Shown here: in pieces, positions 14,948 to 15,551 of the stretch
How the letters are laid out: the number at the start of each line of letters is the position of its first letter
How positions within the stretch are numbered: position 1 is the first letter of the stretch
Source of the DNA: Escherichia coli
Lineage (GTDB): Bacteria; Pseudomonadota; Gammaproteobacteria; Enterobacterales; Enterobacteriaceae
Reading direction: 5' to 3' (one strand)
DNA: 64,000 bases
Assembly: GCF_003334255.1 (NCBI RefSeq)
Contig: NZ_QOWU01000003.1
Program-made: the position numbers and the translations under genes
The notes under the pieces: generated by a model
Told to the model about the DNA's origin: nothing
Database searches by the model: none
The model's input: the letters and a program-made list of their open reading frames with translations, nothing else

Positions 14948-15173
14948 CAGGTAAAACTGACCGATAAGCCGCTTTCTTTTGGGTATAGTGTCGTGGACAG
15001 TCATTCATCTTTCTGCCCCTCCAAAAGTAAAAACCCGCCGAAGCGGGTTTTTACGTAAAACAGGTGAAACTGACCGATAAGCCGCTTTCTTTTGGGTATA
15101 GTGTCGTGGACAGTCATTCATCTTTCTGCCCCTCCAAAAGCAAAAACCCGCCGAAGCGGGTTTTTACGTAAAT
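14948..15173. repeat. two tandem 113-bp direct repeats flanking the 3' end of rnpB, each carrying a terminator-like hairpin
   Basis: Unit 1 is 14948-15060 and unit 2 is 15061-15173, nearly identical (caggt[a/g]aaactgaccgataagccgctttcttttgggtatagtgtcgtggacagtcattcatctttctgcccctccaaaag[t/c]aaaaacccgccgaagcgggtttttacgtaaa); a third partial copy merges into the rnpB 3' end. Each unit has the hairpin aaaaacccgccgaagcgggttttt. Confidence 0.85.
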
Positions 15174-15174
15174 C

Positions 15175-15551
15175 AGGTGAAACTGACCGATAAGCCGGGT
15201 TCTGTCGTGGACAGTCATTCATCTAGGCCAGCAATCGCTCACTGGCTCAAGCAGCCTACCCGGGTTCAGTACGGGCCGTACCTTATGAACCCCTATTTGG
15301 CCTTGCTCCGGGTGGAGTTTACCGTGCCACGGACTGTTACCAGCCGCGCGGTGCGCTCTTACCGCACCCTTTCACCCTTACCTGATCCCGCTTGCGCGGG
15401 CCATCGGCGGTTTGCTCTCTGTTGCACTGGTCGTGGGTTTCCCCCCCAGGCGTTACCTGGCACCCTGCCCTATGGAGCCCGGACTTTCCTCCCCTCCGCC
15501 CGTCTCCCCCGAAGAGGACGACGACGAAGCGGCGACTGTCTGGTCAGCTTC
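15175..15551 (-). ncRNA. rnpB: RNase P RNA component (M1 RNA), 377 nt
   Basis: Reverse complement of 15551 downward reads GAAGCTGACCAGACAGTCGCCGCTTCGTCGTCGTCCTCTTCGGGGGAGACGGGCGGAGGGGAGGAAAGTCCGGGCTCC... and ends ...CGGTCAGTTTCACCT at 15175: the M1 RNA sequence recognised from memory, with exact 377-nt length. Confidence 0.93.

Follow-up and report, generated by a model that had tools for sequence, protein, structure and literature searches.

A 113-bp tandem repeat array lies directly behind rnpB, the gene for RNase P RNA (M1 RNA), in a 64,000-nt stretch of Escherichia coli DNA (assembly GCF_003334255.1, contig NZ_QOWU01000003.1), referred to below as the window. The array most probably represents the long-known variable tandem repeat of the rnpB 3' flank, a set of back-up bidirectional terminators reshaped by unequal exchange. 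As a variable-number tandem repeat, it changes in copy number when its units undergo in-register unequal exchange or when replication slips between them. The array of the window is a three-unit array of the K-12 type that has lost one period through an exchange between K-12 units b and c. Distal copies which have ceased to engage in exchange are decaying.

Structure of the array in the window

Tandem Repeats Finder placed one array at 14918-15197 with a period of 113, 2.5 copies and 94% matches (score 504). This was the sole large-period array in the window. The features of the array and of its borders were as follows.

15175-15551, minus strand: rnpB, the RNase P RNA (M1 RNA) gene (Rfam RF00010 and RefSeq annotation of an identical locus)
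15061-15173, minus strand: repeat unit 2, adjoining rnpB, hybrid between K-12 unit b and unit c (Tandem Repeats Finder and repeat search)
14948-15060, minus strand: repeat unit 1, with the variant bases of K-12 unit a (Tandem Repeats Finder and repeat search)
15085-15102 and 14972-14989, strand not assigned: unit-specific segment CTTTCTTTTGGGTATAGT (gapped alignment)
15142-15165, either strand: T1, the intrinsic terminator hairpin of rnpB itself, symmetric A5-CCCGC-loop-GCGGG-T5 (folding)
15029-15052, either strand: T2, the second intact copy of the hairpin (folding)
14918-14939, strand not assigned: degenerate third terminator copy AAACCCGCCGGAACGGTTTATT at the distal edge of the array, within the span given by Tandem Repeats Finder
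14794-14822 and 14858-14892, strand not assigned: pair of repetitive extragenic palindromic (REP) sequences forming a bacterial interspersed mosaic element (BIME), between the array and the relic copy
14710-14770, strand not assigned: relic diverged copy with a 3'-end segment, spacer and broken terminator, just past the yhaC stop (14674)
13487-14674, plus strand: yhaC, which converges on rnpB across the array (open reading frame (ORF) list and RefSeq annotation of an identical locus)

Units 1 and 2 were identical at 110 of 113 positions, a similarity far beyond chance. The three differences are 14953/15066 (A/G), 15028/15141 (T/C) and 15060/15173 (A/T). Two complete near-identical 113-bp units in tandem had been described in an initial annotation made from the sequence, and this self-alignment agrees with it. 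The same annotation took a third, partial copy to be the actual rnpB 3' terminus. The RF00010 match at 15175-15551 abuts unit 2, so that the gene's real 3' end is formed by the partial copy, which begins at 15174. This match scored 318.6 bits (gathering score 100) and was full length, covering model positions 1-367 of a class A RNA. Read on the plus strand, the 3'-terminal AGGTGAAACTGACCGATAAGCCG of the gene agrees with the sequence at which each unit begins, as had also been proposed.

The tandem units and the partial copy were correctly included in the span first given, but homology to rnpB reaches 15224 and not 15210, across an indel. Without gaps, rnpB matches the units as far as 15197, and homology resumes past the indel at 15204-15224 (GTCGTGGACAGTCATTCATCT). 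In the gapped alignment the indel is 18 nt in the units (CTTTCTTTTGGGTATAGT) compared to 6 nt in rnpB (GGTTCT), a net insertion of 12 nt located where the P4 3' strand lies. As homology extends to 15224 the copied part of rnpB is approximately 50 nt (15175-15224). The M1-like segments of the units are at 14953-14971 and 15066-15084 (first segment) and at 14990-15010 and 15103-15123 (second segment). Read on the rnpB strand, each unit is comprised of an A/U-rich 3' trailer, a terminator, a spacer of approximately 18 nt and the last approximately 50 nt of M1 with the insertion. Within the window the unit motifs were found at the rnpB flank only.

T1 and T2 share the hairpin sequence AAAAACCCGCCGAAGCGGGTTTTT and are identical over 24 nt. 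On the rnpB (minus) strand each folds at -19.4 kcal/mol (z -5.3 and -4.9 for the two copies). On the plus strand T1 folds at -13.9 kcal/mol and T2 at -18.5 kcal/mol. These energies support the earlier statement that the hairpin folds as a terminator on either strand. The hairpin of the rnpB strand has the form of an intrinsic terminator, CCCGC-UUCG-GCGGG followed by the U-tract UUUUUGCUUUU. The rnpB T1 has been measured experimentally as an intrinsic terminator with a stem extended by the A-tract and U-tract (PMC3643576). A consensus terminator scan of the window detected none of the rnpB hairpins, because the scan takes the A/T tracts into the stem and no T tail is then left. The miss is therefore technical, and folding settles the question of the hairpins.

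Two features at the distal edge, the degenerate terminator and the relic, are additional to the initial annotation. The degenerate terminator at 14918-14939 no longer folds (-4.4 kcal/mol, z +1.2). It is common to the K-12-type arrays at loci L001, L002, L003, L088, L089 and L091, and a different hairpin variant occupies its position at L092. The relic at 14710-14770 gave a local alignment score of 57 compared to 16.6 ± 2.7 for shuffled sequences, and 0 of 2,000 shuffles reached 57. It was also picked up by the repeat search of the window (families D2 and D3). Where the array has no unit or a single one (L004 and L005), the relic sequence stands directly before an intact terminator, indicating that the relic is the old outer edge of the array. 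The REP pair gave sub-threshold Rfam matches to two REP-derived families, at 32.7 bits for ES036/CssrF and 31.4 bits for naRNA4, and is absent from the O157:H7 locus L005.

Copy number and its changes in E. coli

The array was compared to that of E. coli K-12 MG1655 (NC_000913.3). MG1655 has the array at the same locus with the same flanks, and contains three full units and the partial copy of the gene (3.5 copies). The yhaC stop and the rnpB 3' end are 613 nt apart in MG1655 and 500 nt apart in the window, a difference of exactly 113 nt. The statement in the initial annotation that a repeated rnpB 3' flank is known in E. coli is confirmed by this three-unit array. Reed and Altman (PNAS 1983, 80:5359) reportedly described 3.5 repeats of 113 bp located 3' of the K-12 M1 RNA gene. 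The feature is already known for E. coli K-12, on the basis of the reported 1983 description and of the K-12 sequence itself. In the literature searched, no paper mentioned yhaC together with rnpB and none cited the 1983 title. RefSeq has no annotated feature between yhaC and rnpB in K-12 or in E. coli G6/7, the two records examined. Over 1001 nt the region is 100% identical to yhaC-rnpB-garK of G6/7.

Copy number was counted in 5,426 complete E. coli genomes. The region of approximately 1 kb gave a partial match or better in all 5,426. At least one place covering at least 80% of a unit was present in 3,893 genomes. The match was limited to the gene-proximal terminator region in 1,502 genomes and there was no match whatever to the unit in 31, leaving approximately 28% of the genomes with no full unit. 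Two or more contiguous near-identical units were present in at least 2,085 genomes, three or more in 1,795 and four or more in approximately 307. The counts of two or more and three or more units are based on E-value cut-offs for a synthetic eight-unit query and undercount arrays which hold a long-loop terminator variant (L089 and L090), and the former is a lower bound. Arrays of four or more units were counted through coverage because BLAST gives E-values below approximately 1e-180 as 0. Ranking by best match to the eight-unit query was unusable as pieces are joined and one-unit O157 strains look 100% covered. In an evenly spaced sample of 60 genomes, with places matched taken as a proxy for units, 0, 1, 2, 3 and 4 units were counted in 17, 14, 10, 13 and 6 genomes, respectively. 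The 113-nt query matched at most 8 places in any genome, and the largest array read in sequence held 6 units. The distribution runs from 0 to at least 6 units and is roughly bimodal, with peaks at 0-1 and at 3 units.

The copy numbers read directly from sequence were as follows.

0 units: uropathogenic E. coli (UPEC) 26-1 (L004)
1 unit: O157:H7 (L005), L003 and L092
2 units: the window, L089 and L091
3 units: K-12 (L001)
4 units: L002
6 units: TL012 (L088)

Every unit was at this single locus in all genomes whose loci were read. Copy number therefore varies at one locus among strains, which defines a variable-number tandem repeat. The strain-to-strain variation which had been anticipated was seen both in these arrays of 0, 1, 2, 3, 4 and 6 units and in the population counts.

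The variant bases of the units record how copy number has changed. The K-12 units are of three types, a (AAAAGT...AAAAC), b (TATAGT...AAACC) and c (TATAGC...AAATC). Unit 1 of the window is type a. Unit 2 joins the TATAGT of b to the AAATC of c, and is the product of a single in-register exchange of b with c, in which 113 bp were lost. The TL012 array reads a-b-c-a-b-c, a higher-order duplication of 339 bp. The hybrid unit and the doubled a-b-c block are footprints of unequal homologous exchange or replication slippage.

The surroundings of the array also vary in E. coli. The unit-less strains (UPEC 26-1 and similar matches) are also without most of yhaB-yhaC, of which only fragments, annotated as pseudogenes, remain. 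L089 and L090 have a frameshift in yhaC, and the region distal to rnpB is variable. A long-loop terminator of the CCCGCC-GGTTTACGCT-GGCGGG type was found at T1 or in one unit of E. coli L003, L089 and L092. This variant is similar to terminators found in E. albertii, E. whittamii and further Escherichia lineages (L007, L013, L034 and L060) and may reflect recombination between lineages.

Units in other genera and the weighing of explanations

One genome per species was scanned for a 19-mer common to rnpB and the units. Units behind rnpB were found in Escherichia whittamii, further Escherichia lineages, Klebsiella pneumoniae, Phytobacter, several Kosakonia, Citrobacter, Enterobacter species, several Pantoea, Erwinia mallotivora and Winslowiella. 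These non-E. coli units, from Enterobacteriaceae and Erwiniaceae, are at loci L008, L013, L017, L021, L026, L033, L034, L048, L051, L052, L058, L059, L072, L076 and L084-L086. The arrays contain 1-4 copies of 105-134 nt. Units were absent from both Salmonella representatives and from most other species scanned, most Pantoea included.

The M1-like segments are 39-41 nt apart in almost every unit (approximately 40 nt) compared to 28 nt in rnpB. This common offset indicates that all units descend from one ancestral unit which already carried the insertion. Spacer and terminator type differ by species. Mean identity between units was 0.89 within an array compared to 0.71 between genera, the signature of concerted evolution. 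The between-genus identities of the unit parts were as follows.

First M1-like segment (A): 0.85
Second M1-like segment (B): 0.81
Terminator: 0.74
Insertion segment: 0.68
Trailer: 0.40
Spacer: 0.39

At L058 the same extra T is present in the units as well as in rnpB (GTCGTTGG), which points to gene conversion. RNAalifold predicted the terminator, with compensatory changes, and a 7-bp helix between the two M1-like segments. This helix is invariant and, as it never varies, uninformative. The Rfam RNase P consensus has 12 extra positions where the units carry the 12-nt insertion. The insertion was considered as an ancestral feature of rnpB and this was dropped, as the unit and consensus sequences are not similar.

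Some matches of the scan were of other kinds. In Pantoea latae (L077 3100-3741 and L078 1-4700, one contig) an insert of 4.9 kb separates rnpB and its terminator from a second copy of the last 25 nt with a terminator. The insert encodes a 473-amino-acid protein with a weak match to the PAAR motif (E 0.0012) and three paralogous putative membrane proteins of approximately 135 amino acids. No integrase was seen in it. The flank in Candidatus Pantoea deserta (L055) is similar. Enterobacterial rnpB 3' sequence was also found on very short sub-1x contigs assigned to Microvirga antarctica (L054, 289 nt) and Alkalicoccobacillus porphyridii (L035, 264 nt). L054 holds repeat units, and L035 was matched by the 19-mer and the rnpB 3' end only. 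Both contigs are most likely contamination.

Under the favored explanation, the array would have arisen by head-to-tail duplication of the last approximately 50 nt of M1 together with the short 3' trailer, the intrinsic terminator and approximately 18 nt beyond. Each unit would add one strong symmetric, and so bidirectional, intrinsic terminator, and the array would provide fail-safe termination where the heavily transcribed rnpB and yhaC converge. The M1-derived sequence would be a passive passenger, kept gene-like mainly by concerted evolution and by conversion with rnpB. The array appears to be dispensable, since it is missing from over a quarter of E. coli genomes. The role of the extra copies in termination is inferred. 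Several observations sit poorly with this account. The 12-nt insertion is kept in essentially every unit of approximately 20 species in two families, which passive carriage leaves unexplained, and the unit-specific segment is 68% identical between genera compared to 39% for the spacer. Units of distant genera share CCGGTAAG and GGAGTGG, states which are absent from their own rnpB, and this leaves room for selection on the units themselves. A Term-seq table for K-12 has no 3' ends at the terminators, the mature rnpB 3' end (3270216) being the sole entry in the region (PMC7815308, supplementary file 2). The same file lists a region of Rho-dependent termination within yhaC, on the strand of rnpB and so antisense to yhaC, at K-12 position 3269111 (-), approximately window position 14180 (PMC7815308, supplementary file 2). 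As this is beyond the array, some transcription either passes the array or starts beyond it.

A different explanation is that the units are functional themselves, as a conserved module under purifying selection which mimics the M1 3' end with its P4 strand interrupted by the 12-nt insertion. A unit could then act as RNA from read-through or from a promoter of its own, on either strand, as an RNase E decoy or processing cassette, as an antisense partner of M1, or as a DNA site. The same insertion behind rnpB in many genera, the higher conservation of the M1-like and insertion segments than of the spacer, the unit-specific states shared by distant genera and the potential of the two M1-like segments to pair in all sequences as a 7-bp helix are in line with it. 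However, a promoter scan found no sigma-70 promoter in or between the units, and the spacer, where a promoter would sit, is not conserved. The helix is without covariation support, and the units have neither an Rfam family nor an annotated RNA. Units are missing from approximately 28% of E. coli, from both Salmonella representatives and from most species scanned, and conversion from the highly constrained rnpB, as at L058, can explain much of the conservation. A functional unit in this sense is rather improbable. A possible but doubtful proposal is that of an ancient, selectively maintained module inherited from the common ancestor of Enterobacteriaceae and Erwiniaceae, which evolves concertedly and has a sequence-specific role. 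Such a module would consist of the M1 3' end with the 12-nt insertion in the P4 strand, followed by the A/U-rich trailer and the terminator. Candidate roles are a cis-acting cassette for read-through rnpB transcripts and an RNA which pairs or competes with M1 RNA.

It is very improbable that the units encode small basic peptides, and more so that they are leftover attachment-site duplications. The ORFs concerned start at an ATG in the copied M1 sequence.

15005-15121, minus strand: 38-codon ORF in unit 2, with its ATG within the copied M1 sequence (ORF list)
14907-15008, minus strand: equivalent 33-codon ORF in unit 1 (ORF list)

The E. coli ORFs each have a GGAGG-like site 7 nt upstream, which for the 38-codon ORF is GGAGGGG at 15129-15135, and the TGA of the 15005-15121 ORF overlaps the ATG of the 14907-15008 ORF (ATGA). 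Some gene callers predict hypothetical proteins here, in few records, and Reed and Altman are said to have pointed out ORFs as well. The ORFs sit behind strong terminators, however, and are unannotated in G6/7 and in K-12 RefSeq, which includes validated small proteins. A small-protein gene was rejected because neither the frame nor the ribosome-binding site is conserved in the Klebsiella, Kosakonia and Phytobacter units, in addition to the missing K-12 annotation. The insertion is 11 nt in Klebsiella compared to 12 nt elsewhere and the units range from 105 to 134 nt, so that frame and peptide are not conserved beyond approximately 6 residues. A stop codon ends the Kosakonia frame after 9 codons, and no ribosome-binding site is present in Phytobacter. 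The 38-codon ORF is probably not a gene. The attachment-site explanation supposes integrative elements which target the rnpB 3' end, as at tRNA and transfer-messenger RNA (tmRNA) genes, and the 4.9-kb insert of Pantoea latae, which has rnpB and its terminator on one side and a second, terminator-bearing copy of the last 25 nt on the other, fits this. In E. coli the units abut without intervening sequence, no integrase is present in the neighborhood, and each unit includes a terminator and the unit-specific insertion. Copy number changes in register and follows the unit variants, which argues for unequal exchange and not site-specific recombination. An attachment-site duplication in E. coli was therefore rejected.

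Other features, comparison with known systems and significance

The remaining feature of the rnpB locus is its promoter.

15559-15587, minus strand: rnpB promoter, sigma-70-like GTGACA-17-TATACT (promoter scan, 10 of 12 matches)

The promoter ends 8 nt upstream of the RNA 5' end (15551). No family of Rfam 15 matched the units, which gave only RNase P, REP-derived and terminator look-alikes far below threshold. A CRISPR array was rejected, as the units are contiguous with no unique spacers and the terminator hairpin accounts for a match to CRISPR-DR46 (23 bits, threshold 50). Predicted proteins of the sponge Amphimedon queenslandica (P0005 and P0006) cluster at 90% identity with the 38-amino-acid peptide of the unit, which suggests that the Amphimedon queenslandica assembly contains E. 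coli-derived sequence. Rfam matches above threshold elsewhere in the window were ordinary chromosomal features: SraG (58492-58663), the S15 (rpsO) leader (58893-59007) and REP-derived naRNA4 (60520-60590). Two short tandem arrays were found at 53329-53424 (period 33, 2.9 copies, 71%) and 62814-62888 (period 24, 3.1 copies, 82%).

The window array shares with the K-12 M1 3'-flank repeats, as reportedly described in 1983, the locus, the 113-bp period, the M1 3' end with a rho-independent terminator and the small ORFs. It differs in having one unit fewer and in its recombinant b/c unit 2. The tandem terminators which follow stable-RNA operons (rrnB T1-T2) are alike in their strong GC hairpins, in the extension by A- and U-tracts and in standing in series after a highly expressed RNA gene. 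In contrast to these, the rnpB terminators in series arise by exact tandem duplication which copies part of the gene, and their number is polymorphic. Minisatellite-type loci used in multiple-locus variable-number tandem repeat analysis (MLVA) resemble the array in their intergenic, strain-variable units of approximately 100 bp with in-register copy number, but the rnpB units carry terminators and gene-derived sequence. A literature search found no record of the rnpB array in any MLVA scheme. REP sequences and BIMEs are likewise short repeated palindromic intergenic sequences and one BIME is in the same intergenic region (14794-14892), whereas the 113-bp units are without the REP consensus and confined to one locus in the genomes read. 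The repeats of tRNA and tmRNA 3' ends at the borders of genomic islands also duplicate the 3' end of a stable RNA gene. The rnpB copies differ from these in being contiguous and numerous with no island or integrase between them.

The array is length-polymorphic and multi-mapping and lies beside an essential and very abundant RNA, and it may mislead short-read assembly, mapping and 3'-end calling. The effect on 3'-end mapping suggested in the initial annotation is plausible. The rnpB T1 is in wide use as a genetic part. The range of copy number across the population and the occurrence in other genera are additions to the K-12 description. They are modest, and consist of a population-scale picture with a clear recombinational mechanism and of homologous insertion-bearing units in many enteric genera. 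The unit with its insertion, conserved across two enterobacterial families, may be the new part. If this conservation reflects selection and not gene conversion, it would suggest an unrecognized element in RNase P RNA biogenesis.

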